From: Candidatus Methylomirabilota bacterium
GTDB taxonomy: Bacteria; Methylomirabilota; Methylomirabilia; Rokubacteriales; CSP1-6
DNA: 48,093 nt
Direction: 5' to 3'
NCBI GenBank assembly: GCA_046728035.1
Contig: JBKPDT010000160.1
Span: 1-48,093, forward strand
Shown here: one piece after another, positions 1 to 16,493 of the stretch
Layout of the letters: every line of letters starts with the position of its first letter
Numbering within the stretch: position 1 is the stretch's first letter
Translations under genes and position numbers: made by a program
The notes under the pieces: generated by a model
Seen by the model: only the letters and a program-made list of their open reading frames with translations
Databases searched by the model: none
What the model was told of the DNA's origin: nothing

Positions 1-299
1 AGCGCCACCTCGACGGGCGCGTGCCCGCCTCCGTAATACACCGGCCCAAGCAGGGCTTCGAGATTCCACTCGCCACCTGGCTCCGGGGAGAGCTGCGCGA
101 GATGGGGCACGAGTTGCTGCTTTCCCCGCGCGCCCTAGGCCGGGGCTACGTGCTACCGGCGCGCGTCCAGACGATCTGGGACGAGCATCAGCGCGGCATC
201 CGCGACCGCGCGTCTCTCCTCTGGGCTCTCATGGTCCTCGAGCTCTGGCATCGCACCTTCGTGGACCAGGCGCCCCCCGAGGGGCCGACCGCGCCGTGA
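1..299 (+). CDS. Asparagine synthase (AsnB, class II amidotransferase) family protein, C-terminal fragment; the 5' part lies upstream of the window
   Basis: The frame is open from the window edge to TGA 297-299. Translation '...VIHRPKQGFEIPLATWLRGELREMGHELLLSP...LWALMVLELWHRTF' is a typical AsnB C-terminal tail. Likely the exosortase-associated amidotransferase type. Confidence 0.8.
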   Translation, partial: RHLDGRVPASVIHRPKQGFEIPLATWLRGELREMGHELLLSPRALGRGYVLPARVQTIWDEHQRGIRDRASLLWALMVLELWHRTFVDQAPPEGPTAP

Positions 300-1054
300 G
301 CCGCTTCGAGGACGAGTGGCAGAAGCGCTTCGAGCGCTTCGCGCGGACGTCCGCGGACGAGGCCCTGATCTCGGGCTGGTCGCCGACCGGGCTGCGCCGG
401 CGGTTCGCCATCTTCGCCTCACTCGTCCCGTCGCTCCGGCTGCCCGAGGCGGCCCAGGCGCTCGATCTGGGGTGCGGTGGCGGCACGTATGTGCGCTATC
501 TGGCCGGCCTCGGCCATCGTGTGGTGGGGCTCGACTACTCCGTGCCCAGCCTGGAACGCGCGTGGGCGGCCGACCCGGGCCCCAAGGGCCGCTACCTCGC
601 GGGGGATGCCTATGGGCTGCCCTTCCGCGGCGCCGCCTTCGATCTCGTGGTCTCCATCGGCGTGCTTCAGACCTTGGGTGAGCCGGAGCGCGCCCTGGGC
701 GAGATGGCCCGCGTCCTGCGTCCGGGGGGCGTACTGGTGGTCGAGGCGCTCAACCGGAGGGCCCTGGTCACCCGGGCGCGACGTGTGGTCGCGCGGGCGC
801 GTGGGTGGTCCGAGCGGGTACGGGTGTGGGACCCCGTCGACGTGGTGGGCTGGCTCGAGGGCCACGGCCTCGAGCCCCTGCACCGGGCCGGCATCTACCT
901 CCCGCCCCGCCGCGCCGGGACCCTGGATCACCTCCTCGGGAGCGCGCCTGCCGTGCGCGCCCTGGATCGGAGCCGCCGCTTGAGCAATCTCACCGCTCAC
1001 GGCTTCCTCTTCTCCGCGCGCCGCCGGTCCGGCGGCTCCGCGATGGGAGTTTGA
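296..1054 (+). CDS. Class I SAM-dependent methyltransferase
   Basis: GTG 296 overlaps the upstream stop (GTGA). Has motif I 'ALDLGCGGGTYVRYLAGLGHRVVGLDYS' and post-I/II elements 'GDAYGLPF', 'VLRPGGVLVVEALN'. Confidence 0.85.
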   Translation: MSRFEDEWQKRFERFARTSADEALISGWSPTGLRRRFAIFASLVPSLRLPEAAQALDLGCGGGTYVRYLAGLGHRVVGLDYSVPSLERAWAADPGPKGRYLAGDAYGLPFRGAAFDLVVSIGVLQTLGEPERALGEMARVLRPGGVLVVEALNRRALVTRARRVVARARGWSERVRVWDPVDVVGWLEGHGLEPLHRAGIYLPPRRAGTLDHLLGSAPAVRALDRSRRLSNLTAHGFLFSARRRSGGSAMGV

Positions 1055-1058
1055 TCCC

Positions 1059-2933
1059 ATGTACGGACTCGTCGCCGGCTTCGGCTCCGCCGCCTCCCGC
1101 GTGTCCCCATCCGTCCTTCCGGCGGCCATCGACGACGACGGCGACGCCAAGGTGGGACACTTCACCGATGAGCGCTCGGTGTCCGTGATGGTCATGGTGC
1201 CTCGCGAATCCCACCTCGCGCCCCTCTTGGCCTGGCGACGCGACGGCCGCCTCGGTATCGCGGTGGATGGGTACCTCACCACCGACGTGGCCGGACCCCC
1301 CGGCCGTCAGGTCGAGCGCCTGCTGGAGATGATCGAGGAGCGCGGGGTGGAGTCTGCCCTCGGCGCGGTGGTGGCAGGCGCGTTCAACCTGGTGGTGATC
1401 GACCTCGACGCCCGCACCTTCGTCGTCGCCAACGACCGGCTCGGCCCCATCCCGCTCTACGTGGCCGAGACGCGCGGCGGCGCCGTGGTGTCCACGCTCC
1501 CGCGCCTGCCGGTCACCACCGGCCTCGTCTCGAGGGAGCCCGATCTCACGGCATGCGCCGAGCTGATCTACCTCGGGAACACCATCGGCGACCGCTACTA
1601 CCTCAAGGGACTGCGCCGGCTCCCCCGCGCCTCGATCCTCAAGTGGGAGGAGGGAAGCGGCCGGCTCGAGGCGCGACAGACCTCACTGGCGCATCTCCCC
1701 GACGTAGCCGCGACGGCGCCCGCCGACCTCGACGCGATCGCCGAGACCGTCCGGGCCTCCTGTCGCCGCATGGCGGACGTGAGCGGGCGGACCGCCCTCT
1801 TCCTCAGCGGTGGGATGGACTCGCGCCTCATCCTCGCGGCGTGGCCGGCCGGCCGTGATCTCCCGTGCTACAGCTACGGCCCCGCGGAGTTCGCCGACGT
1901 GGCGATCGCCCGACAGCTCGCCGCCACGCGTGGCGCGCCCTTCACGCGGGTCCCCCTCGACGGGAACCAGGTCGCCGACGACATCGATCGGATGCTCTGC
2001 TTCACGGGGCCTCCGGCCTTTCCCAACCGGTACCTGGCCGCGCGTCGGGTCCTCCAGGACGGGTTCGACACCGTGCTCGATGGGTACATGGGCGACGTGC
2101 TGCTCGGGGGGTCGTTCTACGGCAAGGGCCCGGTCACGAGCCGGCTCGCCCGCTACGCGCGCTACGTCAACCGGCTCGTGGACGAACCGACCCGACGCAT
2201 CGGTCTCGACCGCCTCGCCGAGTGGATCTTCGCCGATATGCTCGATCCGGGTGCGCTCGCCTGGCTGGAGCGCAACGGCGACCCGGACTTCGCCCGCGCC
2301 CTCGCCGCGGAACGGCCGCGAATCCTCGAGGACATCTCCACCGAGCTCCGGCGGATGGCGTCTCCGGACGGATCGACGGCGCTCCTCTTCCGGAACTTCA
2401 CGATCGTCCACAAGGCTCTCCACAACTCCATCTTCCAGACCGTGGCCTCACGGCGCTTCGTCCGGGTCGGGGTCCCGTTGATGAACGATGGTCCGTTCCT
2501 CGAGGCCACCCTGCGCCTGCCCCCCGACGAGGTCGCCTTCCGGAAGCTATATATCCGTCTCTTCCGCCGCCACTTCCCGGCCTATGCCGACGCGCCGTAC
2601 GCGGCTTCCCTCCTGCCCCTGCGCCGTTCGCCGCTGCTCCATCACTGGGTGAGGTCCCTCGGTTCGCGACGGAACCGGCTGATCCCCCACGCGCGCGCGC
2701 TTGCGGTCGGGTTCGACGAGTGGCGGACATGGCTCGCCCAGAGTGAGGGGCTGCGCGAGCGCGCGGTGGTGCTGCTCGCTCGCCTCGGTGTCGCGAGCGC
2801 GGAGCGTCTTCGCGCCGCCGTGGAGCGCATCGGTGACGGCCGCGAATCCGGATCGGGCGATCTCCTGCACCTCGGCGGCCTCGCCTACCTTGTCCAGACG
2901 CCGCTCCGCCTGGGCGCGGCCGGGCCGCGCTGA
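1059..2933 (+). CDS. AsnB-like ATP-dependent amide synthetase, paralog 1 (PP-loop retained, N-terminal Cys nucleophile absent)
   Basis: ATG lies 4 nt after the upstream stop. Has the PP-loop 'LFLSGGMDSRLILAAW' (SGGxDS). The N-terminus is 'MYGLVAGFG' where AsnB has 'MCG'. The upstream in-frame codons (R-W-E-F-D-P) contain no Cys. Confidence 0.8.
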   Translation: MYGLVAGFGSAASRVSPSVLPAAIDDDGDAKVGHFTDERSVSVMVMVPRESHLAPLLAWRRDGRLGIAVDGYLTTDVAGPPGRQVERLLEMIEERGVESALGAVVAGAFNLVVIDLDARTFVVANDRLGPIPLYVAETRGGAVVSTLPRLPVTTGLVSREPDLTACAELIYLGNTIGDRYYLKGLRRLPRASILKWEEGSGRLEARQTSLAHLPDVAATAPADLDAIAETVRASCRRMADVSGRTALFLSGGMDSRLILAAWPAGRDLPCYSYGPAEFADVAIARQLAATRGAPFTRVPLDGNQVADDIDRMLCFTGPPAFPNRYLAARRVLQDGFDTVLDGYMGDVLLGGSFYGKGPVTSRLARYARYVNRLVDEPTRRIGLDRLAEWIFADMLDPGALAWLERNGDPDFARALAAERPRILEDISTELRRMASPDGSTALLFRNFTIVHKALHNSIFQTVASRRFVRVGVPLMNDGPFLEATLRLPPDEVAFRKLYIRLFRRHFPAYADAPYAASLLPLRRSPLLHHWVRSLGSRRNRLIPHARALAVGFDEWRTWLAQSEGLRERAVVLLARLGVASAERLRAAVERIGDGRESGSGDLLHLGGLAYLVQTPLRLGAAGPR

Positions 2934-2936
2934 CGC

Positions 2937-4835
2937 GTGCACGGCCTCGTCGCTGCCCTCGGAAGCGCCGCCCGGCACCTCACGCGCGAGGCGATCGTCC
3001 ATCACCTGGGCGTCCCCGCCGCAGACGCCGTCCATCTTGTCGCCGCCGAGCCCGGGGTGAGCGTGGCCCTCCTGGCCCCCTCCGGGACCGGCGCGATGCC
3101 GCCCATCGCACGGTCGGCCCGTGGATCGCTGGGTCTCGCGCTCACCGGCTATCTGCTGGTGGACTCCGCCTTGCCCGCGGACCGCCACCCCCGGCTACTG
3201 CTGGAGGCGGTGGAGCTTCGCGGGCTGGAGGCGGCCCTGCGCGACGTGGTGGCTGGCAGCTTCAATCTCGTTGTCGTGGATCGAGCGCGCGACCAGGTGC
3301 TCATCGCCAACGACCTCATCGCCTCGGTCGCCCTCTACTATGCCGAGGTCCCCGGCGGCGCCATCGCCACCACCATTCCGGGGTTGCTCCGGCTCGGCGG
3401 CCTTCTTCCCGCGGAGCTGGACTGGACGGGTGTCGCGGAGTTGGTCCAGCTGGGGCACACCGTCGGCGACCGGTATCCTATCGCGGGCGTGCGGCGCCTT
3501 CACGCGGCATCCGTCCTGTCCTGGGATGGAGGAGGCGCCCGTCTCGATGTCCACGCCACCGACCGCGACCCCAGCCGGCTTGCCGTCGAGCCGGGACACC
3601 CCGACCTTGACCATCTCGGCGACCTGATCGAGACAGCGTGCCGGCGACTGACCCGCCTGGATGGTCGCATTGCGAATCTCCAGAGTGGCGGGCTCGACTC
3701 GCGGCTCGTCCTCGCGGCGTGGCCTCGCGAGGCGCCGCTACCGTGCTACAGCTATGGGCCGGCGGACCTTGCCGACGTCGTCGTCGCCGCGCGGCTGGCC
3801 GAGGTCAGGGGCTCGTCGTTCTGCCGCGTTGCGCTTCCCGGCGACGCCGTGGCCGAGGCCTTCGACGACATGGCCCTCTTCGGGGGCGCGCCCCTGTACC
3901 CGAACCGGTACCTCGCCGCCCGGCACCTTCGTGGAGACGGTTTCGGCGCGGCGGTGGATGGCCTGATGGGCGACCTTCTGATGGGCGGGACCTCATTCAT
4001 TTACCAGGACCGGTTCTCGCGGGTCGGACGATATCTCAAGTCCATTCACCGCTTCGTCGACGGCTCCGTCCGCCGCATCGGCCTCGATGCCCTGACTGAG
4101 ATCATCCTCGACAGCCACACCGACCCCACCGCCGGAGCCTGGGCCGCGCGACACCTGGCCCCCGAGGTCGCCGCGCGCCTGACCGCCGCGACGACCGAGA
4201 TCCGGCAGGACATATGGAGCGAGCTCGGCCGGCTCGCCCCCGACCAGGATTCGGCCGCGCTTCTCCTCCGGAGGTTCCGGATGAGGAGCCGGAGCGCCAA
4301 CTATACCCGTCAGCAGGGTGTCTTCACCCGTCGCTTCGTGCACGTCTACTACCCGTTCCCGGCGGATGTGCCGCTGCTCGAGGCGTTCTTCCGTGTGGAG
4401 CCCCGGGTGACCGCCTTCCACCGGAACCAGATCCGCTTGTTCCGGCGCCGCTATCCGGCGTATGCCGAGGTGCCGTATGCGGCGTCCTTGCTCCCGGTGA
4501 AGCGCGATTCGCTCGTGCACCTGTGGGGACCGAGGCTACGCCGGCGCGGTCTTCGGCTTCCGCTCTTCGAGCCGCGCATCGCCGGTGTAAGGGGAGACTA
4601 CGACGAGTGGCACGAGTGGTTCCAGGCCAGCCCGGCGCTCCGCGCGCGGGTCGGAGGGCTCCTCCCGAAGGTTGGCCTGGCCCATCCCGATCACCTACAA
4701 TCGAAGTTGGAGGACATCGAGCACGGGCGGGAGCTGGGCGCCGGCGAGCTCGCTCACCTGGCCGCCCTGGCCCACTTGCTCACCGCCTCGCCCGCGCGCG
4801 TGGCCCCATCCTCGCGGAGTGTGACAGGCCCATGA
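2937..4835 (+). CDS. AsnB-like ATP-dependent amide synthetase, paralog 2 (PP-loop retained, N-terminal Cys nucleophile absent)
   Basis: GTG 2937 sits one codon after the in-frame TGA 2931-2933, so no longer N-terminus is possible. The N-terminus is '(M)HGLVAALG'. Has the PP-loop 'NLQSGGLDSRLVLAAW'. Collinear with paralog 1 ('LPCYSYGPA..ADV', 'PNRYLAAR', 'DG.MGD.L.GG'). Confidence 0.8.
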   Translation: MHGLVAALGSAARHLTREAIVHHLGVPAADAVHLVAAEPGVSVALLAPSGTGAMPPIARSARGSLGLALTGYLLVDSALPADRHPRLLLEAVELRGLEAALRDVVAGSFNLVVVDRARDQVLIANDLIASVALYYAEVPGGAIATTIPGLLRLGGLLPAELDWTGVAELVQLGHTVGDRYPIAGVRRLHAASVLSWDGGGARLDVHATDRDPSRLAVEPGHPDLDHLGDLIETACRRLTRLDGRIANLQSGGLDSRLVLAAWPREAPLPCYSYGPADLADVVVAARLAEVRGSSFCRVALPGDAVAEAFDDMALFGGAPLYPNRYLAARHLRGDGFGAAVDGLMGDLLMGGTSFIYQDRFSRVGRYLKSIHRFVDGSVRRIGLDALTEIILDSHTDPTAGAWAARHLAPEVAARLTAATTEIRQDIWSELGRLAPDQDSAALLLRRFRMRSRSANYTRQQGVFTRRFVHVYYPFPADVPLLEAFFRVEPRVTAFHRNQIRLFRRRYPAYAEVPYAASLLPVKRDSLVHLWGPRLRRRGLRLPLFEPRIAGVRGDYDEWHEWFQASPALRARVGGLLPKVGLAHPDHLQSKLEDIEHGRELGAGELAHLAALAHLLTASPARVAPSSRSVTGP

Positions 4836-6016
4836 CCGTGCTACACGTCCTCGACCATTCGCTACCGGCGCTGAGCGGCTACAGCACGCGCAGCCGGAAC
4901 ATCGTCGTCTTCCAGCGCGAGGCGGGCCTGCGCCCGGTGGTCGTCACGTCACCCAAGCACCCCGTGGCGGGGCCCGAGCGCGAGGTGCTGGAGGGGATCG
5001 CGCACTACCGGACCCGGCCGGGCCGGGCGGTCGGCATCCCCTACGTTCGCGAGCTGGGCCTGATGGCGGCGCTGGCGCGCCGGATCCGGGACGTGGCGCG
5101 ATCGGAAGGGGCCCGGGTCCTCCACGCCCATTCGCCCGTACTCAATGGGCTGCCCGCGCTGTGGGTCGGGCGGCGCCTCGGGCTCCCCGTCGTCTACGAG
5201 GCCCGTGCCTTCTGGGAGGATGCCGCGGTCGATCAGCAGACCACGCGCGAGGGATCCCTCCGGTACCGGCTGACCCGGACGCTCGAGACATTCCTGTTCC
5301 GGCGGGTCGACCGCGTTGTCGTCATCGCCGAGGCCATGCGCCACGACATCGTCAGGCGCGGTGTCCCCGCCGAGCGTGTGACGGTGGTGCCCAATGGCGT
5401 GGACACGGACATCTTCAGCCCGGTGCTGCGGGACGAGCGCCTCGCCCGCTCGCTCGGCCTCGATGGAGCGCCGGTGCTCGGGTTCATCGGATCCTTCTAC
5501 CACTACGAGGGGCTGAGCCTCCTGCTCGAGGCGTTGCCCGCGCTGCGTGCGCGGATGCCGGGCGTCCGTGTGCTGCTGGTGGGGGGCGGCGACGAAGAGG
5601 TGGCCCTCCGGTCGATGTCGGCGCGCATCGGCGACGCCGTGGTCTTCGCGGGCCGAGTGCCCTACGACCGGATCCGCGACTACTACTCCCTCATCGACGT
5701 CTTCGTCTGCCCGCGGCGCCGGATGCGCCTGACCGAGCTCGTGACGCCCCTGAAGCCGCTCGAGGCGATGGCGATGGCCTGCCCGGTGCTCGCCAGCGAT
5801 GTGGGTGGACAGGCCGAGCTCATCCGCCACGACGTGACGGGTGTGCTCTTCTCCGCGGAGTCCCGCGACTCGCTCGTGGAGGCGGCGGCGGGGCTCGGTG
5901 CCGATCCCGCGCGGCGTGCCCGGCTCGGGCGCCAGGCGCGGGAATTCGTGGTGGCCCAGCGCGGGTGGCCCCAGGTGGTCGGCCGGTACCTGCCCCTCTA
6001 TGAGGCCGGAGCCTAG
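4832..6016 (+). CDS. GT4-family glycosyltransferase, exosortase/PEP-CTERM-associated type
   Basis: ATG 4832 overlaps the upstream TGA (ATGA). The N-terminus 'MTVLHVLDHSLPALSGYSTRSRNIV' resembles exosortase-A-associated GTs. The C-terminal GT4 motif is 'PLKPLEAMAMACPVLASDVGGQAELIRHDVTGVLF'. The track ORF start at 4214 is an upstream extension inside the previous gene. Confidence 0.85.
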   Translation: MTVLHVLDHSLPALSGYSTRSRNIVVFQREAGLRPVVVTSPKHPVAGPEREVLEGIAHYRTRPGRAVGIPYVRELGLMAALARRIRDVARSEGARVLHAHSPVLNGLPALWVGRRLGLPVVYEARAFWEDAAVDQQTTREGSLRYRLTRTLETFLFRRVDRVVVIAEAMRHDIVRRGVPAERVTVVPNGVDTDIFSPVLRDERLARSLGLDGAPVLGFIGSFYHYEGLSLLLEALPALRARMPGVRVLLVGGGDEEVALRSMSARIGDAVVFAGRVPYDRIRDYYSLIDVFVCPRRRMRLTELVTPLKPLEAMAMACPVLASDVGGQAELIRHDVTGVLFSAESRDSLVEAAAGLGADPARRARLGRQAREFVVAQRGWPQVVGRYLPLYEAGA

Positions 6017-7256
6017 GCGCGCCGTGCGAGCCCTCGTCCTGTCCTCGACGTTTCCCAACGCCAATCAGCCCACGCTGGGCGTCTTCATCCGCGAGCGGAT
6101 GCGAGCCCTCGCCGGCCGGTGCGAGCTGCGCGTGGTGGCGCCGGTGCCGTGGTTCCCCGCCAATGGGCTCATCCGCGGCGCGAGCGTGGTCGGGCTCCCG
6201 GCAGTCGAGGACGGCGGCGGGTTCCCCGTCTATCACCCGTCCTTCCTGTCCGTCCCGCGCTATCTCAAGTGCCTCGACGGCCTTCTCTACGCGATCTCGT
6301 TGGCCCCGTTCGTGGCGCGCCTGCGCCGGCAATTCCCGTTCGATCTGATCGACGCCCATTTCGCCTACCCCGATGGCGTCGCCGCCGTGCTCCTGGGCCG
6401 GCTCCTGCGCAGGCCGGTGGTCATCACGCTCCGCGGCAGCATTGTCCGTCTCCAGCACTACCGGCTCCATCGGCCACAGATCCGCCGGGCCCTGGAGGGC
6501 GCCGCGGGGATCATCGCGGTGAGCCAGTCGCTGAAGGACGTCGCCGCCGGCCTGGGCATCGTGCCGGAGCGGATCACGGTGATCCCGAACGGCGTGGATC
6601 TCGCAAAGTTCCATCCGGTCACCCGGGCCGCAGCCCGGGCGACGTGCGGGCTCCCCGCGGACCGGCCGGTCATCCTCACCGTCGGCGGCATCTACGAGGG
6701 CAAGGGACAACATCTGGTCGTCGAGGCCCTGGCCAGCCTGTCGGCCCGCTATCCCGACGCGCTCTACGTGATGGTGGGGGGCGATCGCCGAGACGGCTAT
6801 CCAGAGCGCGTGCGGGAGCTCGCCACACGGAGCGGCCTGGCCGACCGGCTGCGCTTCGCGGGGGCTCACCCCCACACAGCGCTCGCCGCCTGGTACTCCG
6901 CCGCAGACGTCTTCTGCCTCGCCACCCAATCCGAGGGCTGGGCCAATGTGCTCCTGGAAGCGCTCGCCTGCGGGACGCCGGTGGTCACCACCCGGGTCGG
7001 CGGCAATGCCGAGATCGTCCGCGAGGGGCGTGACGGCCTGCTCGTGCCGTTCGGCGACGTGCCCGCTCTTGCGCGGGCCCTCGACCGCGCGCTCACGTCG
7101 AGCTGGGACTCCGCCGCGCTCACCGCCCATGCCGCCGGGCACACGTGGCACGCCGCCGCGAACGGCGTGATGGGCGAGTTCGCGCGCGTCGTGGCCGCCG
7201 TGCCGTCCGTCGGCTCGGCGAATCCCAAGCGTTCGACCGCGGTGTCCAACCGATGA
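6000..7256 (+). CDS. GT4-family glycosyltransferase
   Basis: ATG 6000 gives a 17-nt overlap with the upstream gene. Has 'RALVLSSTFPNANQPTLGVFIRERM' and the GT4 C-terminal motif 'SEGWANVLLEALACGTPVVTTRVGGNAEIVREGRDGLLV'. Confidence 0.8.
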   Translation: MRPEPRRAVRALVLSSTFPNANQPTLGVFIRERMRALAGRCELRVVAPVPWFPANGLIRGASVVGLPAVEDGGGFPVYHPSFLSVPRYLKCLDGLLYAISLAPFVARLRRQFPFDLIDAHFAYPDGVAAVLLGRLLRRPVVITLRGSIVRLQHYRLHRPQIRRALEGAAGIIAVSQSLKDVAAGLGIVPERITVIPNGVDLAKFHPVTRAAARATCGLPADRPVILTVGGIYEGKGQHLVVEALASLSARYPDALYVMVGGDRRDGYPERVRELATRSGLADRLRFAGAHPHTALAAWYSAADVFCLATQSEGWANVLLEALACGTPVVTTRVGGNAEIVREGRDGLLVPFGDVPALARALDRALTSSWDSAALTAHAAGHTWHAAANGVMGEFARVVAAVPSVGSANPKRSTAVSNR

Positions 7257-8425
7257 TCACCACGCTCTGGCGGAAGCGGCTCTACCGTACCGAGGCCCTG
7301 CGCCTCATGGCCCGTGACCTCCGGGGCTGGCGTGGGCCCGTGCGCGCGCCCGGCGAGCATCTGGACGCGGCCGCCCGCTGGATCCTGCGCGCCCAGGCGG
7401 CGACGCGGGACGACGGGGTGTCTGGCGGCTACTCGCTCGAGGACGGGTGGATCGCCTCCTATCCGGAGACGACCGGTTACATCATCCCGACCCTCCTCGC
7501 CTACGCGGACTATTCCGGCAAGCGCGAGTACGCCGCGCACGCGCTCGCCATGGCCGACTGGGAGTGCGCGGTGCAGCTCCCGGAAGGCGGCTTCCCGGGC
7601 CACTTCGTGAACCAGACCAATCCCCCCGCGGTCTTCAACACCGGACAGGTAATCTTCGGCCTCCTCGCAGCGCACGAGACGTTCGGGAACCCGCGGTTTC
7701 TCGACGCCGCCCGGCGAGCGGGGGCCTGGCTCGCGGCCATCCAGGAGCGCGACGGCTCGTGGCGCCGGTTCGACTACCGCGACACGGTGCACGTCTACAA
7801 CACCCGCACGGCGTGGGCTCTCGTGGAGCTGGGCCTGGCCGCGGGCGCCGACGCGACGCGCGCCGCCGGCGAGCGGCACCTCGACTGGGCGCTGGACCAG
7901 CAGGATCGGGACGGTTGGTTCCGCAACGCCGCGTTCGGCGCCGGCGAGGACCCGTTCCTGCACACCATCGCTTATACGACACAGGGGCTGCTCGAGGCCG
8001 GCCTTCGGGTCGGCCGGGCCGACTACGTGGCGGCCGCGGAGCGCGCCTGCCGCGCGCTCGTGCCCCACGTGCGGCCCGACGGCCATATCCCGGGCACCTT
8101 CGCGCCGGGCTGGCGCCCCACCGCCCGCTACTCGTGCCTGACCGGAAACGCCCAGATGGCGGCCCAGTGGCTCCGGCTCCACGATCGCACGGGCGACCCG
8201 GGATTCCGGGAAGCCGCCGTCCGCGCCCTGACGTTCCTCAAGCGCACGCAGGATTGCGAGACGCACAATCCTCACGCGCGCGGGGCCATCAAGGGCTCAC
8301 ACCCCTTCTGGGGGCGCTATCTCTTCGGCACCTATCCCAACTGGGCCGTGAAGTTCTTCATGGACGCCCTCCTCATGGAGGAGCTCGTCCTCACGGGACG
8401 GAAGTCATGCATCCGCTGCTGGTGA
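7253..8425 (+). CDS. Prenyltransferase/squalene-cyclase-like (alpha/alpha)6-barrel protein with QW repeats
   Basis: ATG 7253 overlaps the upstream TGA (ATGA). Has QW-type repeats 'WLAAIQERDGSWRRF' and 'LDWALDQQDRDGWFRN', plus 'SYPETTGYIIPTLL'. Function is unknown in this context. Confidence 0.6.
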   Translation: MITTLWRKRLYRTEALRLMARDLRGWRGPVRAPGEHLDAAARWILRAQAATRDDGVSGGYSLEDGWIASYPETTGYIIPTLLAYADYSGKREYAAHALAMADWECAVQLPEGGFPGHFVNQTNPPAVFNTGQVIFGLLAAHETFGNPRFLDAARRAGAWLAAIQERDGSWRRFDYRDTVHVYNTRTAWALVELGLAAGADATRAAGERHLDWALDQQDRDGWFRNAAFGAGEDPFLHTIAYTTQGLLEAGLRVGRADYVAAAERACRALVPHVRPDGHIPGTFAPGWRPTARYSCLTGNAQMAAQWLRLHDRTGDPGFREAAVRALTFLKRTQDCETHNPHARGAIKGSHPFWGRYLFGTYPNWAVKFFMDALLMEELVLTGRKSCIRCW

Positions 8426-9786
8426 AGACGGTCGTCTACCCGCTCCACGAGCGGCTCAAGGGGAAGGGCACCTTTCCCTGGCTCCGCCGGCTCGAGGCGA
8501 GCCAGTGGTGGACGCCGGGCCGGCTCGCCGCCGCCCAACTCGACCGGCTGAGGGCGCATCTCGAGTGGGCGTACGCGCGCGTGCCGTACTACCGGGGGCT
8601 CTTCGATGAGCACGGGCTGCGGCCAGCGTCGATACAGACCCTCGACGACTTCCGCCGCGTGCCGTTCCTCACCCGCGAGATACTCCGCGACCGCGGCCCC
8701 GACCTGGCCGCCCGCGCGCGGCTCCGCGGGGTCCAGCGCCTCGCCACCGGCGGCTCCACCGGCGCGCCGGTCGCCATCCTGATCGACGCGGAGCGGATGG
8801 GCGTCGGGGACGGCATTCGCCTCCGCGCGCACCGTTGGTTCGGAATCGAGCCGGGCGCCCGCGAGGTGGTGCTGTGGGGCTCGCCCATCGAGGTCACACG
8901 CCAGGATCGCGTCCGCATCCTGCGTGACCGCTTCCTGAACTCCACCCTGCTCTCGGCGTTCAACATGGGCGAGCCCGAGATGGCGCGCTACGGCGAGGCC
9001 ATCGCCCGGATCGGCCCGGAGAAGATGTACGGGTACGCGAGCGCCTTCACTCTCCTCGCCGGGTACCTGCGGGCCAGGGGCTGGACGCCCCCGGCGGGCC
9101 TGAAGGCCATCTTCACTACCGCCGAGCCCCTCTTCGATTTTCAGCGGAAGGCCATCGAGGAGGCGTTCGGCTCCCGGGTCGCGACCGAGTACGGCTCGCG
9201 CGACGCGGGCCTCACCGCCAACGAGTGCCCGGAGGGATCGCTCCACGTCCCCGCCGAGGGCATCCTCGTCGAGGTCGACGGGGCGGGTGCGGACGGCCTT
9301 GGCGAGATCGTCGTGACCAATCTCTACTCGCCGGCGATGCCGATCATCCGCTACCGCACCGGCGACCTCGGCCGCCTCGATCCGGCCCCCTGCCCGTGCG
9401 GGCGCGGGCTGCCCCGGCTGGCCAGCGTCGAGGGACGGCGGACGGACTTTCTCGTCGCCACCGACGGTCGCCTCCTGCACGCCCTGTCCATCATCTATAT
9501 CCTCCGCGAGACCCCCGGTCTCGCCCAGTTCCGCGTCGTCCAGGAGGAGGTCGAGCGGGTGACGATACAGGTTGCGCCTGCCGACGCCTTGTCCGAGGCG
9601 GGCCGGCGGTGGCTGGTCGAGCGCGTGCAGGCCCTTCTAGGCGCCTCCGTCCGGGTCGCCGTGGAGGCCGTGGGGGACATTCCCGCCGAAGCCTCGGGGA
9701 AGCACCGGTACGTGGTGTCGAAGGTTGCCGATCGTTACGTGGGCGAGCTTCTGTCGGGCGCGGCCAACGGGAAGGGGCGGCGATGA
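8407..9786 (+). CDS. Phenylacetate-CoA ligase / CapK / F390-synthetase-like adenylate-forming enzyme
   Basis: ATG 8407 gives a 19-nt overlap with the upstream gene. Has 'VPYYRGLFDEHGLRPASIQTLDDFRRVPFLTREILRD', the P-loop-like 'LATGGSTGAPVAI', and 'YGSRDAG', 'IIRYRTGDLG'. Confidence 0.75.
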   Translation: MHPLLVKTVVYPLHERLKGKGTFPWLRRLEASQWWTPGRLAAAQLDRLRAHLEWAYARVPYYRGLFDEHGLRPASIQTLDDFRRVPFLTREILRDRGPDLAARARLRGVQRLATGGSTGAPVAILIDAERMGVGDGIRLRAHRWFGIEPGAREVVLWGSPIEVTRQDRVRILRDRFLNSTLLSAFNMGEPEMARYGEAIARIGPEKMYGYASAFTLLAGYLRARGWTPPAGLKAIFTTAEPLFDFQRKAIEEAFGSRVATEYGSRDAGLTANECPEGSLHVPAEGILVEVDGAGADGLGEIVVTNLYSPAMPIIRYRTGDLGRLDPAPCPCGRGLPRLASVEGRRTDFLVATDGRLLHALSIIYILRETPGLAQFRVVQEEVERVTIQVAPADALSEAGRRWLVERVQALLGASVRVAVEAVGDIPAEASGKHRYVVSKVADRYVGELLSGAANGKGRR

Positions 9787-10997
9787 GGGACCCGGCCCCG
9801 GTGCTCGTCACCGACGCGCCCTCGAACGCGAACCTGGCCGTGGTGCGCTCGCTGGGCCGGCAGGGCATCCCGGTAGGCGTGTGCGGGTTCGAAGGCGAGT
9901 TCAACCTCTCCTTCCACTCCCGCTACGTCCAGGAGCGCGTCTTCCTGCCCTCTCCCGCTCGCGACCCCTCCGGATTCCTCGGCGGTCTCCGGGCGCTGCT
10001 CGTGACCGGCAAGTATCCGATCCTCTTCCCCACGACCGACCGGACCATACAGCTCGTCGCGGCGCACCGGGCGGAGCTTCCCGCCTGGATCCGCGTTCCC
10101 ATCGCGCCGCAAGCGGCCATCGAAACTGCGCTGGACAAGGAAGCCACGCTGACCCTGGCGCGGCGGCTCGGGGTCCCGACGCCCCGCACGTGGTGTCCGG
10201 CTGGCCCCGCCGCGCTCGAGCAGACACTCGGCGAGATCCGCTATCCCGTCATCGTCAAGCCGCGCCAGACCAATTTCCTCGGTGCCGACGGACGGCTCCA
10301 CAAGACGGGCTATGCCATCGTCGACGACGCCCCCGCGCTCGCGCGGGCCTATGCCGAGATCGACCGTGCGGTGCCGCGACCGCTGATCCAGGAGGTCGTC
10401 CAGGGGGACGGCGCAGGCGTCTTTTCGATCTGGGATCACGGGACGCCCCGCGCCTGGTTCGCGCACCGTCGCCTCCGCGAGGAGGATCCGCGCGGCGGGC
10501 GCGCCTCGGCGGCGACGAGTGTGCGGTGCGACCCGCGCCTCCGGGCCTGGGCGGAGCAGCTGCTCGGCGCGCTCGCGTGGCACGGCGTGGCCATGGTGGA
10601 GTTCAAGTGGGACGCCGCCACGGGCGCGGCGTGGCTGATGGAGATCAACGGCCGCTTCTGGGGCTCCCTGGCCCTTGCCCTCGCCGCGGGCGCGGACTTC
10701 CCCTACTGGCTGTATCGCCTCGCCAACGGCGAGCCGATCGAGGCCCCCGCCGACTATCCCGCCGGGGTGGTGGCGCGCGACCCCATCGCGGAGCTCAAGC
10801 ATTTCGTGCGCGTGCTCGCGCCCGGCCGCCGGAACGCCGGCGGCGGCGCTCCTTCCCGCTGGGCGACGCTCCGGCAGATGGGAAGCATCCTCCATCCCAC
10901 GCGGGACTCCTACAACTGGACGACGGACGATCCGGAGCCGGGGCGGCAGGAGTGGCGGCACCTCTTCCGACGGGCGAGAGGGCTCGCCAAGCCATGA
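9783..10997 (+). CDS. ATP-grasp family carboxylate-amine ligase
   Basis: ATG 9783 overlaps the upstream TGA (ATGA). Has 'YPVIVKPRQ', 'LIQEVVQGDGAGVFS' and 'GVAMVEFKWD...AWLMEINGRFWGS' (the E-x-N metal/ATP site). Confidence 0.75.
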   Translation: MRDPAPVLVTDAPSNANLAVVRSLGRQGIPVGVCGFEGEFNLSFHSRYVQERVFLPSPARDPSGFLGGLRALLVTGKYPILFPTTDRTIQLVAAHRAELPAWIRVPIAPQAAIETALDKEATLTLARRLGVPTPRTWCPAGPAALEQTLGEIRYPVIVKPRQTNFLGADGRLHKTGYAIVDDAPALARAYAEIDRAVPRPLIQEVVQGDGAGVFSIWDHGTPRAWFAHRRLREEDPRGGRASAATSVRCDPRLRAWAEQLLGALAWHGVAMVEFKWDAATGAAWLMEINGRFWGSLALALAAGADFPYWLYRLANGEPIEAPADYPAGVVARDPIAELKHFVRVLAPGRRNAGGGAPSRWATLRQMGSILHPTRDSYNWTTDDPEPGRQEWRHLFRRARGLAKP

Positions 10998-11806
10998 GGC
11001 TGCGCGGCGTCGCCCACGTGCACTCGACTTACTCGTACGATGGGTGCCATTCCCTCGCCGACCTGGCGGCCTTCTTTCGCGCCGAGGGCCTGGACTTCGT
11101 CCTCATGAGCGAGCACAACCGCGGCCTGTCGGATGCCATCATGGCGAAGCTCGCGGCCGAGTGCGCGGCGCTGTCGGACGCCCGCCTCCTCGTCGTCCCG
11201 GGACTCGAGTGTGAGGCGACGCCGGACTGGGTGCATGTCCTCGGCTACAACGTCAGCAGGTTGATCACCGCCCGTGAGGCCCCCGCCATCCTCGCGGCGA
11301 TCCGCGGCGCGGGCGGCTTCGCCGCGCTCGCCCATCCCCACTACCGGGACGCCTCCGCGCTCGTGGACCCGGGGACGTTGGCCGGCCTGCAGGGGTGGGA
11401 GGTATGGAATGGCAAGGCGGATGGAGGGCACGCTCCCCAGGCCAAGAGCCTGGATGTCTACGCGGAGCTGCGCCGGACCCAGCCACGGCTCATGCCGCTC
11501 GGGGGGGCCGACCTGCACCGGCTGGAGAGCTATCCCGGCATCTGTCTCGAGGTGGACGGCGCCGAGCGCACCGCCGGCGCCATCCTCTCCGCCCTGTCGG
11601 CCGGGACATACCGGGTGACAGGACGCGGCTTCGCCTTCTCGGCCGGAGAGCGCCTCGTCGGCTCGATGGTGCCCTCGAGCGGGTCGGCCGCGGGCATTCT
11701 GCGCACGCTCAAGCGCGGCGCGCAGCGACTCGACCGCCGCTTCGCGCGGGCCGGGCTCCGCATGCCAGAGTCGGTGTATCGCCTGATGCGGAGGCTCCTG
11801 CGGTGA
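10994..11806 (+). CDS. PHP-domain metal-dependent phosphoesterase
   Basis: ATG 10994 overlaps the upstream TGA (ATGA). Has 'GVAHVHSTYSYDGCHSLADLAAFFRAEGLDFVLMSEHN' (HxH ... EH PHP motifs) and 'ALAHPH'. Confidence 0.7.
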   Translation: MRLRGVAHVHSTYSYDGCHSLADLAAFFRAEGLDFVLMSEHNRGLSDAIMAKLAAECAALSDARLLVVPGLECEATPDWVHVLGYNVSRLITAREAPAILAAIRGAGGFAALAHPHYRDASALVDPGTLAGLQGWEVWNGKADGGHAPQAKSLDVYAELRRTQPRLMPLGGADLHRLESYPGICLEVDGAERTAGAILSALSAGTYRVTGRGFAFSAGERLVGSMVPSSGSAAGILRTLKRGAQRLDRRFARAGLRMPESVYRLMRRLLR

Positions 11807-12831
11807 CCGCCCCATTGAACGTCTCGACGTCCGCCCCGCCACAGTGGTCCGCGCTCCGGCCGGTCCCCTTTCAGTCGGAAGGGTTCGGGACTGCCATGGG
11901 CACCATGGGCTACCGCCCCCTGTACCTCCATGACGGCGCGCGCTGCGCCCTCGCTCTCGTGCGGGGGGCCCTGCCGGGGCTCGGCAATCTCACCGCCCGC
12001 GCCAATGTCTTCCTCGACGGGGCCGACGCGGCGTTCACGGCGGCCGCGCTCGGTGCCCTCGCCCGGCGCGGGATTCCCTACGTGAAGGTGGGGGACACCA
12101 TGTCCGGCGTGGCGTGGGAGTCGCTGCCGGCTGGCTGGGCCTTCGGCCACACGCGCATGATCCGGCGCCATACCTTCGTGCTCGACCTCACGCAATCCGA
12201 GGCCGCCCTGCTCAAAGCCATGGACGGGGCCGAGCGCAAGATTCGCAAGGCCGACCGCGAGGGCGTCGAGGTGCGCCCCGTCCAGTCCCGCGAGGAGCTG
12301 GCCGCCTATTGCCGGCTGTCGCGCGACACCTCGGAGCGCGTGCGCGCGCGCTCGGCGTACACCGACTTCCCCGACCGCTTCTTCGAGGATCTCTACCGCC
12401 TGCTCGGTGCCCAGGGCATCGCGCGCTTCTACGTCGCCTGGCACAAGGACGAACCCCTCGCCGGGTGCCTCTTCACGTGCTCGGACTCGACCATGCTCTA
12501 CTACCTGGGTGGTTCCACGCGCGACCGCGAGCTCACCGCCAAGCAGGCGCCCGCCGCGGTGTTCTGGCACGCGATCCGCGAGGCCAAGCGACTCGGCCTG
12601 TCGCGGTTCGACCTGGGCGGCTGCACGCCGACCGAGGATCCCCACGATCCGCGCCACGGAGTCTATACGTTCAAGAAGCGGTGGGGTGGTCGGCTCGAGA
12701 CGTTCTACAATCTCGATGTGGTGCTTTCGAGCATCCCCTACTATCTCCAGGAGCGCGTGCTCTCGCCGGTGTGGGACCGGGTCCATCCTTTGTACTTCCG
12801 GCTGATGGACGCCATGCGGTCGGCGCGATGA
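11803..12831 (+). CDS. FemAB-like (GNAT-fold, aminoacyl-tRNA-dependent transferase family) protein, PEP-CTERM-system-associated type
   Basis: GTG 11803 overlaps the upstream TGA (GTGA). Has 'FYVAWHKDEPLAGCLFTCSDSTMLYYLGGSTRDRELTAKQAPAAVFWHAIREAKRLGLSRFDLGG' and 'VYTFKKRWGG', as in FemAB/MurM-type peptide-bridge transferases. Confidence 0.75.
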   Translation: MTAPLNVSTSAPPQWSALRPVPFQSEGFGTAMGTMGYRPLYLHDGARCALALVRGALPGLGNLTARANVFLDGADAAFTAAALGALARRGIPYVKVGDTMSGVAWESLPAGWAFGHTRMIRRHTFVLDLTQSEAALLKAMDGAERKIRKADREGVEVRPVQSREELAAYCRLSRDTSERVRARSAYTDFPDRFFEDLYRLLGAQGIARFYVAWHKDEPLAGCLFTCSDSTMLYYLGGSTRDRELTAKQAPAAVFWHAIREAKRLGLSRFDLGGCTPTEDPHDPRHGVYTFKKRWGGRLETFYNLDVVLSSIPYYLQERVLSPVWDRVHPLYFRLMDAMRSAR

Positions 12832-14936
12832 CCTCCATGCCCGCGGTCGTGATGCTCCTTGCGGTGGCGAGCTGCCTGGTCCTCGCCGGCACCGCGCTCC
12901 TGCCCCGCTCGCGCGGCGGCGCGCGCTGGGGCTTCGCGCTGGGCATGCTGGGCCTCGCCCTCGAGACCGCGGCGAGCTGGGGCCTGCTCACCCTGACCGA
13001 CGACAGCGAGGGGCGGCAGCTCTACCTGCGGGCCTGGGCGGTGGCCGGCCTCGTCGCCCTGGTGCCGTGGGGCTATTTCATCGTGTCCCTCGGGTCGGGC
13101 GGGGGCCGATCCTCGCCCCGCCCGATCCGCCTCGCTCTCGCCGCTGGGAGCGTGGCCCTCCTGGCCGCCGCCGCCGCCGTGATCACCCTCCCCGCGTTCC
13201 AGATCACCGACGTCCCCGGCCCCTTCTACGCGGCGAGGCTGGAGTCTGTAGGTCGATGGGCGATCGTGCTCCAGGTGCTCGCCACCGCCGCGCTCCTGGG
13301 CGGGCTGGAGGCCTGCCTGCGGACGTCCAAGAGCGAGACGCGCTGGCGCATCAAGTATCTGGTGCTGGGGCTGGGCGGCGTCTTCCTCATGCGCTTCTTC
13401 CTCCTGAGCCAGATCCTCCTCTTCCAGGTCGTGATGGCGGTCTACCTCACCACCACCGCCGCCGCCCTTTTCCTCGGCAACCTGCTCGTGGGCGGCTCGC
13501 TCCTGCGCGAGCGGCTCCTGCTCGCCGAGGTCACGGTCTCGCGACGGGTCGTGTACCGGTCGGTCGTGGTCGGCGTGCTCGGCGTCTACCTCCTCGTGGT
13601 GGGCGCGCTGGGCTGGCTGCTGAGCCACCTCGGGATCCCCGAGGAGCTGTTCTGGGGCTCGCTGGTGGTCTTCGTCACCGCCATCGCGCTCGCCGCCATC
13701 CTGTTCTCCGAGAACGTGCGCTGGCGCTTCAAGCGCTTCATCGGCTTCCACTTCTACCGGAACAAGTACGACTATCGCGAGCAGTGGACCAGCTTCACCC
13801 GTCGGCTCGGGCCGCTGCCGTCGGAGGGAGATCTCGTGCGCGCGGTGCTCGAGGCGGTCACCGAGGCCGCGGGGGCGGCGCGCGCCGTGCTCTACCTGGT
13901 CGACGCGCGCGACGGGCAGTATCATCGGGCGGGCGCCGTGGAAGCCGACCGCGCTCCCGCCGTGCTGGCCCCGGGTCATCCCCTCATCCGCCGGCTCGAG
14001 TCCGCGGCGAGCGCCACCGTCGTCGGCGGGGCGGAGACGGAGGAGCCCGGGTCCGACAGCCGGAGCCTCGCCACCCAGTTCGCCGAGGGATCGGCGGCGG
14101 TGGCGCTGCGGTGGCGCGACCGTATCACCGGCGTCATGCTGATCGGGCCCGAGCGGACGGGCGCCCAGTACCACGCCGAGGACCTCGAGTTCCTCTCCAC
14201 GGCGGCCGACCAGGCGGCGGGCGCCGTCGTCACTGCCCAGATGTCGGAGCGCCTGGCGCAGGCGCGCGAGTTCGAGGCCTTTCACCGCCTGACATCCTTC
14301 GTGATCCACGACCTCAAGAACTCCATCTCCGCGCTCTCACTCCTCAGTCAGAACGCCCTCGAGCACTTCGACGACCCCGAATTCCAGCGTGACGCCCTGC
14401 GCACCCTGTCCCGCACGGTGGAGCGGATGCAGGGGCTCCTCGGGCGACTCTCGGCGGCCCCCGAGGCGGCGGAGCTGCGCCCCCAGCCGGTGGACCTCGC
14501 CGCCGTCGCGCTGGAGGCGACCAGGCCGGTGGGAGGGGGACGCGTGCAGCTCGTCAAGGAGCTCGCGCCGCTCCCGCCCGTCCCCGCCGACCCGGACGCC
14601 CTCCTCAGGGTGCTCCAGAATCTCGTGACCAATGCCGTCGAATCGGTGAAGGGCGAGGGGACCGTGACGATCCGCACCCACGAGTCCGAAGGGTGGGCGG
14701 TGTGCACGGTCACCGACACCGGCGGGGGGATGCCCGCGGAGTTCATCAAGACCGCGCTCTTCGTTCCGTTCCGCTCCACGAAGAAGGGCGGATGGGGCAT
14801 CGGTCTCTACCAGGCCAAGGGCATCGTCGAGGCACACGGCGGACGCATCGAGGTCACCAGCACCGTCGGCCGCGGCACGACCTTCACGGTGCGGCTGCCC
14901 ATCGAGCCGCATACTCCCGAGAGATCAGCCCCATGA
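12828..14936 (+). CDS. prsK: PEP-CTERM system sensor histidine kinase PrsK
   Basis: ATG 12828 overlaps the upstream TGA (ATGA). Has a long polytopic N-terminal region, a GAF-like middle, H-box 'SFVIHDLKNSISALSLL', N-box 'VLQNLVTNAVES', G1 'VTDTGGGMP' and G2 'KKGGWGIGLYQAK'. Confidence 0.8.
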   Translation: MTSMPAVVMLLAVASCLVLAGTALLPRSRGGARWGFALGMLGLALETAASWGLLTLTDDSEGRQLYLRAWAVAGLVALVPWGYFIVSLGSGGGRSSPRPIRLALAAGSVALLAAAAAVITLPAFQITDVPGPFYAARLESVGRWAIVLQVLATAALLGGLEACLRTSKSETRWRIKYLVLGLGGVFLMRFFLLSQILLFQVVMAVYLTTTAAALFLGNLLVGGSLLRERLLLAEVTVSRRVVYRSVVVGVLGVYLLVVGALGWLLSHLGIPEELFWGSLVVFVTAIALAAILFSENVRWRFKRFIGFHFYRNKYDYREQWTSFTRRLGPLPSEGDLVRAVLEAVTEAAGAARAVLYLVDARDGQYHRAGAVEADRAPAVLAPGHPLIRRLESAASATVVGGAETEEPGSDSRSLATQFAEGSAAVALRWRDRITGVMLIGPERTGAQYHAEDLEFLSTAADQAAGAVVTAQMSERLAQAREFEAFHRLTSFVIHDLKNSISALSLLSQNALEHFDDPEFQRDALRTLSRTVERMQGLLGRLSAAPEAAELRPQPVDLAAVALEATRPVGGGRVQLVKELAPLPPVPADPDALLRVLQNLVTNAVESVKGEGTVTIRTHESEGWAVCTVTDTGGGMPAEFIKTALFVPFRSTKKGGWGIGLYQAKGIVEAHGGRIEVTSTVGRGTTFTVRLPIEPHTPERSAP

Positions 14937-15823: not shown

Positions 15824-16467
15824 GCCGCCAGGGCCGGTTCTTCCTCGTCGCAATGGTGCTGCTGGTCACGGCGGGCGCGGCGCTCGCCCTCCCGCGGGGC
15901 GCCCGTGATGTGCCGCTCTTGGCCCCGCTCGAGTCCCTCCCCACCACGCTCGGCGCCTGGCGGCCCGCGGAGCCGGCCGCCGACGAGATACTCCCGCGCG
16001 ACCCGCGGGCGGCCGAGAGTCTGGCGCGCGGGTACACGGACGGAACGCGCACGGCATGGGTCGCCGTCGGCTTCTATCCGAATCAGACCGAAGGCCAGCG
16101 GCCCGCGACGGGAAGGCTAGTCTTCCCCAGCAGCGGCTGGACGGACCTGAGCGAAGAGACGGTCTCGATCCCCGCGTCCGGCGCGGGCGCCTCCGCCCTG
16201 CCCGCGAACCTGGTGCGAGTCCGACGAGGCGACCGGCGCGTCGCGATTCTCTACTGGTACCATCTCCCGGGCGGGACGGTCGGGAGCGATCATGTCTACC
16301 GGGCGAGGCTCCTGTGGAACCGGCTCGCTCACCGCCGGGCCGACGGCGCGCTCGTGCGCGTCGCCATGCCCCTGCCGGCCGACCTGAGCCCGGCGGCGGT
16401 GGTCGCCGAGCAGGCCGAGTTCCTTCGGGTCTTTCTGCCCGAGCTCTCGCGGAGTCTCCCGCGCTAG
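15820..16467 (+). CDS. epsI: EpsI-family exosortase-associated protein
   Basis: ATG 15820 overlaps the upstream TGA (ATGA); GTG 15811 is an alternative start. Has the N-terminal anchor 'GRFFLVAMVLLVTAGAALAL', then 'LPTTLGAWRP', as in EpsI proteins. Confidence 0.7.
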   Translation: MSRQGRFFLVAMVLLVTAGAALALPRGARDVPLLAPLESLPTTLGAWRPAEPAADEILPRDPRAAESLARGYTDGTRTAWVAVGFYPNQTEGQRPATGRLVFPSSGWTDLSEETVSIPASGAGASALPANLVRVRRGDRRVAILYWYHLPGGTVGSDHVYRARLLWNRLAHRRADGALVRVAMPLPADLSPAAVVAEQAEFLRVFLPELSRSLPR

Positions 16468-16493
16468 CCGTCCCCCAGCAGAGGAGCGGATCC

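Follow-up and report, generated by a model that had tools for sequence, protein, structure and literature searches.

The 48,093-nt stretch of Candidatus Methylomirabilota DNA analysed here (contig JBKPDT010000160.1, positions 1 to 48,093; hereafter 'the window') carries two adjacent forward-strand genes that resemble the asparagine synthetase AsnB but lack Cys1, the glutaminase nucleophile of class II amidotransferases. Within the AsnB superfamily these genes, paralog 1 (1059-2933, 624 aa) and paralog 2 (2937-4835, 632 aa), belong to a small subfamily, as yet uncharacterised, that is a fixed accessory of XrtA/PEP-CTERM loci of the Methylomirabilota type. The AsnB fold is kept, as are the PP-loop and the Mg-binding Asp of the synthetase domain; the glutaminase site is dead. 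We conclude that the pair represents a real, uncharacterised subfamily and not a new kind of system.

A first-pass annotation, made from the letters alone, had placed the two starts at M-Y-G and at a GTG-initiated M-H-G, and both placements proved exact. Paralog 1 (N-terminus M-Y-G-L-V) opens with ATG-TAC-GGA-CTC-GTC at 1059, with a Shine-Dalgarno-like GGGAG motif 9 nt upstream; its M-Y-G codons (1059-1067) put a Tyr in the place of Cys1. For paralog 2, the annotation had made a case for the absence of any upstream start that could supply the cysteine. Such a start was looked for in both genes, and none is possible. In paralog 1, the upstream frame extends over 25 codons to a stop at 981-983 and reads AISPLTASSSPRAAGPAAPRWEFDP; direct reading found no ATG, GTG or TTG and no Cys codon in it. 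In paralog 2 (N-terminus M-H-G-L-V), the junction at 2931-2945 reads TGA-CGC-GTG-CAC-GGC, continued by CTC-GTC; the TGA (2931-2933), which is also the stop codon of paralog 1, stands in frame one codon upstream of the GTG at 2937. The 3-nt gap between the two genes suggests translational coupling. The N-terminus of paralog 2, MHGLVAALGSAARHL, is the same in its orthologue in a related locus (L003; related loci and proteins are designated below by L and P numbers), where it follows a 50-nt spacer. JGI gene calls on an 8.8-kb metagenome contig with an identical paralog 1 gave proteins of 624 and 632 aa in the same order, and N-termini of the form M[HYF]G[LF] are kept across about 50 homologues, none of which has a Cys at position 2. 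Upstream reading and conserved N-termini together rule out an alternative start giving Cys1 in either gene.

Both genes are intact. They are the longest open reading frames (ORFs) of their region in a window of 72% G+C, with a third-position G+C content (GC3) of 0.85-0.89 and the codon-position G+C pattern of real genes. The ratio of nonsynonymous to synonymous substitution rates (dN/dS) was 0.22 for paralog 1, compared with the L088 locus, and 0.21-0.25 for paralog 2; for the two neighbouring glycosyltransferase genes it was 0.11 and 0.20. Both paralogs are therefore under purifying selection. The first-pass annotation had proposed that the proteins be aligned to Pfam domains and modelled. 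Both pass the Asn_synthase model PF00733 (cut-off 21 bits), paralog 1 with 47.6 bits (E = 2.4e-12) and paralog 2 with 38.6 bits (E = 1.4e-09). The GATase_7 model is passed by paralog 1 alone, at 26.3 bits (E = 8e-06) just over the cut-off of 25, paralog 2 staying under it at 19.8. An AlphaFold2 model of paralog 1 was confident throughout (pLDDT 90.3, pTM 0.91) and has the two-domain AsnB fold. Intact reading frames, dN/dS values near 0.2 and this confident model exclude decaying pseudogenes.

The loss of glutaminase function, which the first-pass annotation had deduced from Cys1, is borne out by the glutamine-binding positions. Among 48 full-length members of the core family, 24 have His at position 2, 12 have Tyr, 6 have Phe and the remaining 6 some other residue; Cys does not occur there. 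In an HHalign profile-profile alignment with E. coli AsnB (probability 99%), Cys1 is replaced by Tyr or His, Asn74 by Asp70 and Asp98 by Gln84, both at variable positions, and Glu76 by Tyr72, which is nearly invariant; Gly75 is retained as Gly71. The region of Arg49 aligned at low confidence in the global alignment and no equivalent was assigned to it. Since Cys1, Asn74, Glu76 and Asp98 are all replaced, the glutamine site is gone as a whole, beyond the nucleophile alone. The model of glutamine-hydrolysing asparagine synthases, TIGR01536, was not reached either (64.6 bits for paralog 1 and 43.9 for paralog 2, against a cut-off of 267). The paralogs thus have neither the Cys nucleophile, nor the glutamine-binding residues, nor the model score of a class II, or N-terminal nucleophile (Ntn), glutamine amidotransferase.

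The family is rare. A word-indexed search of 5.8 billion clusters returned only about 27 relatives for paralog 1 and about 16 for paralog 2. When 1.84 billion representatives were searched exhaustively with a profile, about 27 full-length proteins scored E <1e-100, followed by a continuum of remoter proteins, with 132 clusters (50% identity) at E <1e-30. The family itself comprises about 50 clusters at 50% identity, mostly from Methylomirabilota/Rokubacteria; among GTDB species representatives, full-length members were found only in metagenome-assembled genomes (MAGs) of Rokubacteria/Methylomirabilota and in one Zixibacteria MAG. Members are named 'asparagine synthase-related protein', 'asparagine synthetase B' or 'hypothetical' in the databases. 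A curated family for the paralogs or their nearest relatives was sought: NCBIfam has none, and Pfam gives the generic Asn_synthase and a weak GATase_7. A literature search on PEP-CTERM together with asparagine synthase or synthetase found nothing on a Cys-less family; the only pertinent speculation it brought up, in a T9SS/Wbp paper (PMC7468200, see below), is about the canonical AsnB.

The remoter proteins form an 'outer radiation' (P0058-P0177; profile E-values 1e-64 to 1e-30), mostly metagenomic. None of its 102 representatives has Cys1; at position 2, 40 of them carry Pro, 17 Ser and 10 Ala (N-termini MPG, MSG and MAG). A genome scan placed relatives of this outer clade in, among others, Thiobacillus denitrificans (L018) and Roseateles (L072), which are cultivable; the family of the window has no known cultured host. 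The K-x-G-F motif, which carries Lys449 in AsnB and Lys443 in beta-lactam synthetase (BLS), was found in only 4 of the 102. These proteins share with the family of the window the absence of Cys1, an Arg after the PP-loop (hence SGGxDSR) and a DG-x-x-G-D motif. The family of the window nevertheless stands apart from them as a distinct tight cluster (E <1e-100), in which His or an aromatic residue, and not Pro, stands at position 2 and which is specifically linked to XrtA loci. The one outer member whose surroundings were examined, L087, lies in a polysaccharide locus of Latescibacteria with CapK_C, DAP-epimerase and AMP-binding/acyl carrier protein genes, and no canonical AsnB gene was found within 10 kb on either side of it. 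Because 102 remoter representatives carry the same signature, the loss of Cys1 is an old trait of a large uncharacterised clade and no event in this locus.

The two copies are likewise old. They had been taken for duplicates about half identical in their central region, and paralogues they are, with 43% identity overall (BLASTP E = 1e-146) and 52% over residues 220-350; they are not the product of a local tandem duplication. In a neighbour-joining tree, paralog 1 falls in a clade 'A' with P0002, P0003 and P0004-P0009, whereas L003_11932, P0017, P0186, P0187 and P0188 are grouped with paralog 2 as a small clade, 'B2'. Identity to paralog 2 is 81% for L003_11932 and 77-84% for B2 members elsewhere. 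The tree and these orthologue identities rule out a recent tandem duplication, and paralogs 1 and 2 are thus old paralogues from clades A and B2.

The related loci differ in the copies they hold. A single copy is found in L002 and L007 (clade A) and in L001, which is the same as L008 (another clade B lineage, P0016). The pair A + B2 occurs in the window and in L088, which is 78% identical in nucleotides and has the same gene order, and the pair B1 + B2 in L003 and in one JGI contig. L006 has a single clade B1 gene followed directly by a B2 remnant. In this Rokubacteria MAG (CAVYTA010000006.1, positions 11870-12200), the remnant amounts to 113 in-frame codons, in which about 50 N-terminal residues (MHGLVAALGSAARHL...) are joined to about 60 C-terminal ones by an internal deletion of about 520 codons. 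B2 was never the sole copy, being the second Cys-less copy in all four of the other loci examined; the internally deleted remnant in L006 shows that some genomes can do without the B2 copy. Two further loci place the gene elsewhere. In L089 (JGI 3300086347) a single Cys-less gene (10001-11863) is still within the XrtA locus but at its far end, after PrsR and about 9 kb from AsnB, and none lies between the methyltransferase and the glycosyltransferases. In L004 two Cys-less copies flank a TylF-type methyltransferase, in a locus with MurL-like, Glu/Leu-dehydrogenase, CapK-like and ATP-grasp genes. These differing placements indicate that the gene is tied to the system rather than to one position. 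As regards the origin of L003 (GCA_035687125.1), which is titled Pseudomonadales, each gene of the locus matches the window to nearly the same degree in this contig as in L006 (for example PrsR with 90% and stp3 with 79% identity in both); the contig is therefore probably mis-binned and comes from a Rokubacteria/Methylomirabilota genome.

The SGGxDS PP-loop of the synthetase domain, which the first-pass annotation had read in both genes, is SGGMDS in paralog 1, where with Arg256 it occupies positions 1806-1826, and SGGLDS in paralog 2, where the alignment places S-G-G-L-D-S-R at 3684-3704; it is invariant in the family. In the numbering of paralog 1, S250, G252, D254, S255 and R256 are invariant in 27 aligned sequences. 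The Arg directly after the loop, where canonical enzymes have Ser, was present in 46 of 46 core proteins and in 91 of 91 outer-clade proteins with a recognisable loop. The AsnB segment S346-G347-E348-G349-S350-D351 corresponds to D341-G342-[Y/F/C/L/W]-x-G345-D346 in the family, so that the ATP/Mg contacts Gly347 and Asp351 have retained equivalents, and both the PP-loop and the Mg/ATP-binding residues of PF00733 are present. Across sequences 33-73% identical, these five residues together with D341, G342, G345, D346 and G350 are invariant or nearly so. Many polar and charged residues of the domain are invariant, as is Cys235, 15 residues upstream of the loop. Nucleotide binding is hard to dismiss, because the PP-loop, the Arg that follows and the Mg-binding Asp have remained invariant over deep divergence.

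Comparison with solved structures required a family profile, as a single-sequence search of the PDB was essentially empty (AsnB at E = 0.66). The profile matched human ASNS (E = 6e-09), TsnB9 (2e-08), E. coli AsnB (2e-07) and carbapenam synthetase (CarA; 0.014); BLS was not found. In Foldseek the order was TsnB9 (TM 0.64-0.70), ASNS and AsnB, BLS, then CarA, all as whole-length matches (E = 5e-19 to 3e-12) with 13-17% identity. The best structural match, TsnB9 (7YLZ; E = 5e-19, 13-14% identity, second in the profile search), is a hydroxyamidotransferase by its depositors' name, and its likeness to the paralogs is one of fold and profile match. AsnB (1CT9), ASNS (6GQ3) and the XrtA-associated amidotransferase TIGR03108 have the same build as the paralogs, an Ntn-type N-domain and a PP-loop synthetase domain in about 620 aa. 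SGGxDS and the equivalents of Gly347 and Asp351 are common to AsnB and the paralogs, and paralogues of TIGR03108 type occur in the same locus. The paralogs differ from AsnB in the four glutamine-site residues, in the absence of Glu348 and of Lys449 with its K-x-G-F motif, and in the Arg for Ser after the PP-loop; on the TIGR03108 model they scored 33 and 17 bits, against a cut-off of 817.

BLS, CarA and the lasso-peptide cyclases are Cys-less AsnB homologues as well, and the analogy with them drawn by the first-pass annotation is valid only at the level of the superfamily. In BLS (1JGT, 1M1Z) and CarA (1Q15) the N-domain is non-catalytic, the synthetase domain adenylates a carboxylate, and the structure resembles the paralog model over its whole length (E = 1e-15 to 3e-13); lasso and macrolactam cyclases (NF033535, NF033561), also of the AsnB superfamily, form an amide (isopeptide) bond with ATP and without glutamine. 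The paralogs might then be intramolecular peptide cyclases or beta-lactam-type synthetases acting on a peptide, such as a PEP-CTERM protein. Paralog 1 indeed has a Tyr at the position of BLS Tyr348 and a weak match, 30 bits, to the macrolactam-cyclase model NF033561. The cut-off of that model is 300, however, NF033535 gave no match, and the canonical AsnBs of the same loci score 244-265 bits on the lasso-cyclase model, far over the Cys-less proteins. The Tyr is not conserved (Leu in paralog 2, Cys, Phe or Trp elsewhere), no equivalent of Lys443 is found, and Glu382, the partner of Tyr348 in the BLS/CarA dyad, has no alignable equivalent. The setting is a polysaccharide locus and not an antibiotic cluster: domain searches of the window, which were not aimed at small precursor ORFs, revealed neither a gene for a lasso leader peptidase or an RRE nor any carbapenem or clavam gene. 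Moreover, PEP-CTERM proteins are exported substrates, while the paralogs show cytoplasmic AsnB-type domains only. A specific kinship with BLS, CarA or lasso cyclases was thus supported neither by model scores nor by profile and structure searches; the family is no closer to them than to AsnB, and we regard a cyclase or beta-lactam-type activity as very improbable indeed.

The function that we favour is that of an ATP-dependent enzyme forming an amide on a carboxylate of a polysaccharide unit. This is a tentative assignment, to which we give slightly less than an even chance; carboxylate adenylation followed by amidation is the most plausible chemistry as far as the sequences go. The Ntn N-domain would be a fossil that no longer hydrolyses glutamine and would most likely serve as a structural or substrate-binding lid. 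The protein would bind ATP and adenylate a carboxylate on the unit that the locus builds, be it a sugar, an amino acid or a uronic acid. The acyl-adenylate would then be captured, giving the amide, by a nitrogen nucleophile from a source other than the enzyme's own glutaminase site, possibly an amine or amino-acid substituent, or free ammonia. The catalytic constellation would have been re-built, Arg256 and other invariant arginines being candidates for it. B2, as an optional second copy, would probably carry out a second, related modification or pair with the first copy. The locus neighbours, namely a CapK-like adenylating enzyme, an ATP-grasp protein and a FemAB-like transferase in the window, and MurL-like or DAP epimerases in L004 and L087, point to amide- or peptide-decorated sugars. 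It has been proposed that the canonical AsnB of such loci (TIGR03108) turns a uronic acid into a uronamide, and that FemAB/VimA relatives add amino acids to sugars, which may be sortase acceptors (PMC7468200). That proposal provides a chemical setting; it concerns the canonical AsnB and is no evidence on the Cys-less proteins.

Several observations weigh against amide formation. The position of AsnB Glu348 and BLS Tyr348 is variable in the family (DG[YFCLW]), with Tyr in paralog 1 and Leu in paralog 2. The K-x-G-F motif is present in none of 48 members, and no Lys is invariant at any position of the family; the loss of Lys449 rests on these two facts, which are independent of the alignment. 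Adenylate chemistry requires Lys449 in AsnB and Lys443 in BLS. With Cys1, three catalytic hallmarks of the AsnB type are thus gone. In addition, confidence in the global HHalign alignment with AsnB is low over the C-terminal half (residues about 357-624), which makes the substrate pocket unreadable, and no NCBIfam model reaches its cut-off for the family or its outer relatives.

The loss of Glu348 and of the Lys449 motif, added to that of Cys1 and of all glutamine-binding residues, keeps alive the idea of a non-catalytic pseudoenzyme, that is, a scaffold or regulatory partner, for example in an Ntn-domain heterodimer with the upstream TIGR03108-type AsnB or of the two paralogs with each other. 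In most loci the gene does sit one gene downstream of a canonical M-C-G AsnB, and the dispensability of B2, of which L006 retains only the deleted remnant, would fit such a role. On the other hand, a mere partner would not readily account for the invariance, over deep divergence, of the PP-loop, the following Arg, the Mg-binding Asp and the many polar and charged residues of the synthetase domain. The Latescibacteria relative in L087, on either side of which 10 kb are free of a canonical AsnB gene, makes an obligate partnership less likely, and in L089 the gene lies about 9 kb from AsnB. We consider a pseudoenzyme unlikely, though it deserves to be kept in mind.

The catalytic constellation is also unlike that of every characterised amide former of the AsnB type, and AsnB-like enzymes with new chemistries exist. 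A PP-loop ATP pyrophosphatase could activate a carbonyl or carboxylate group for reaction with sulfur or oxygen (giving an ester) or for nitrile formation, in the manner of LarE, of QueC-type enzymes or of the recently described nitrile-forming AsnB-like enzymes; in its favour one may quote the invariant Cys235 upstream of the loop and, over the PP-loop core, weak matches in structure to LarE and NH3-dependent NAD synthetase. These matches, however, are limited to the shared PP-loop core (TM about 0.15, E >1e-3), the residue aligned with Cys235 in canonical AsnBs occupies an ordinary helix position, and domain searches of the locus brought out nothing indicative of sulfur or nitrile chemistry. 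Non-amide chemistry of this kind seems to us quite improbable.

The genes around the pair, on the forward strand from 3 to 17858, identify the setting as an XrtA/PEP-CTERM exopolysaccharide locus: PrsK, PrsR, PrsT, stp3, EpsI and an exosortase-associated acyltransferase all score over their cut-offs. The window opens with the 3' end of an AsnB-family gene (3-299, the last 98 or so codons), an XrtA/PEP-CTERM amidotransferase-like protein that matches positions 276-354 of Pfam Asn_synthase (E = 1.5e-14) and positions 549-623 of TIGR03108. As had been noted, this third AsnB-family gene precedes the pair and its N-terminus lies outside the window; it is not adjacent to the pair, a methyltransferase gene (296-1054) lying between them. 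It is assigned to the canonical Cys type because its orthologues in related loci start with MCGIAG. The syntenic orthologue in L002, which is 70% identical and has this start, scores 754 bits on TIGR03108 (cut-off 817), the canonical AsnB paralogues of L002 reaching 703 and 754 bits. XrtA/PEP-CTERM loci contain up to four AsnB-family genes, of which one or two are, in the loci considered here, unable to use glutamine.

The methyltransferase is a class I S-adenosylmethionine-dependent enzyme (Methyltransf_11, E = 5.7e-25), the best NCBIfam match of which is the DVU_1556 family, at 82 bits for a cut-off of 155. In L001-L003 and L006-L008, an orthologue (59-67% identity) likewise separates the canonical AsnB from the Cys-less gene. 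Downstream, paralog 2 is followed by a GT4 glycosyltransferase of the PEP-CTERM/XrtA system (TIGR04063, stp3; 4832-6016; 500 bits for a cut-off of 442; 394 aa in the JGI call), whose start overlaps the stop of paralog 2 (ATGA), and by a second GT4 glycosyltransferase (6024-7256; Glycos_transf_1, E = 1e-35; 410 aa in the JGI call). No promoter-like or terminator-like signals were found between the genes within 296-8425, and since stops and starts abut or overlap as well, this segment looks like one operon.

An accessory cassette of five genes comes next (7253-12831), with approximate starts and with order and lengths taken from the syntenic L088. It codes for a squalene-cyclase/ulvan-lyase-N-like protein (from 7253), a CapK/PaaK-like adenylate-forming enzyme (about 8407-9786), an ATP-grasp protein (about 9789-10997), a CehA/McbA-type metallohydrolase-like protein (about 10952-11806) and a FemAB-like transferase (about 11812-12831). 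The cassette is also present in L088 (5622-11199), L001-L003 having only the CapK-like gene at this place, and it accompanies the A + B2 pair in both loci where it was seen. The best NCBIfam match of the CapK-like enzyme is the DVU_1553-family AMP-dependent ligase, below cut-off; the DVU_1556 methyltransferase and the DVU_1553 ligase are two members of one uncharacterised Desulfovibrio cassette.

The core of the exosortase system (12828-17858, starts approximate) consists, in order, of the PrsK histidine kinase (from 12828; TIGR02916, 413 bits for a cut-off of 300), the exosortase (about 15005-15823, in an ORF at 14693-15823; Exosortase_EpsH, E = 3e-59), EpsI (15811-16467; TIGR02914, 86 bits for 43) and the sigma-54 response regulator PrsR (about 16503-17858; TIGR02915, 589 bits for 503). 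The exosortase is below the cut-offs of both XrtA (161 bits for 208) and XrtW (199 for 425). The exosortase-associated acyltransferase (186 bits for 112) and PrsT (413 for 312) are encoded further downstream. Synteny with exosortase-system genes is kept in 8 other loci. The order canonical AsnB, methyltransferase, Cys-less gene, two glycosyltransferases, CapK-like gene, PrsK, exosortase, EpsI, PrsR is common to the window, L001-L003, L006-L008, L088 and the JGI contig, with extra cassette genes around the CapK-like gene in the window and L088. The family member P0035 adjoins genes for a PEP-CTERM protein, a PrsT-like TPR protein and a deacetylase. The family is strictly linked to XrtA polysaccharide loci.

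Two long ORFs elsewhere in the window, both on the reverse strand, were also recorded. At 19134-21056, an uninterrupted ORF of 640 codons has only the middle and C-terminal domains of a MurF-like Mur ligase (aa 42-393), followed by a peptidyl-tRNA hydrolase that is complete (aa 460-621; 147 bits, cut-off 100). The two may be truly fused, or a stop codon between separate genes may have been lost. At 44888-47524, an arginyl-tRNA synthetase ORF of 878 codons has recognised domains only from about residue 326, so that either its true start is internal or it has a long N-terminal extension.

The function of the Cys-less proteins, once shown, would define a modification step of the floc- and biofilm-forming polysaccharides of XrtA/PEP-CTERM loci, and it would also annotate 132 clusters (50% identity, E <1e-30), and probably many more, that now go by 'asparagine synthase', 'asparagine synthase-related' or 'hypothetical'. 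For the superfamily as a whole, a PP-loop synthetase domain persists here under selection without the Glu and the Lys that are thought essential in AsnB and BLS; should its activity be confirmed, such a domain would be of interest to enzymologists. A bolder view, which we hold to be rather improbable, is that the SGGxDSR proteins are an unrecognised class of AsnB-superfamily enzymes with a re-built site (the Arg after the PP-loop standing in for the Lys, and no Glu348), coupling amines or amino acids to the carboxylates of uronic acids or peptides in glycans linked to a lipid or a nucleotide. If this were true, their product in XrtA loci could be, or could prepare, the acceptor to which the exosortase attaches cleaved PEP-CTERM proteins.

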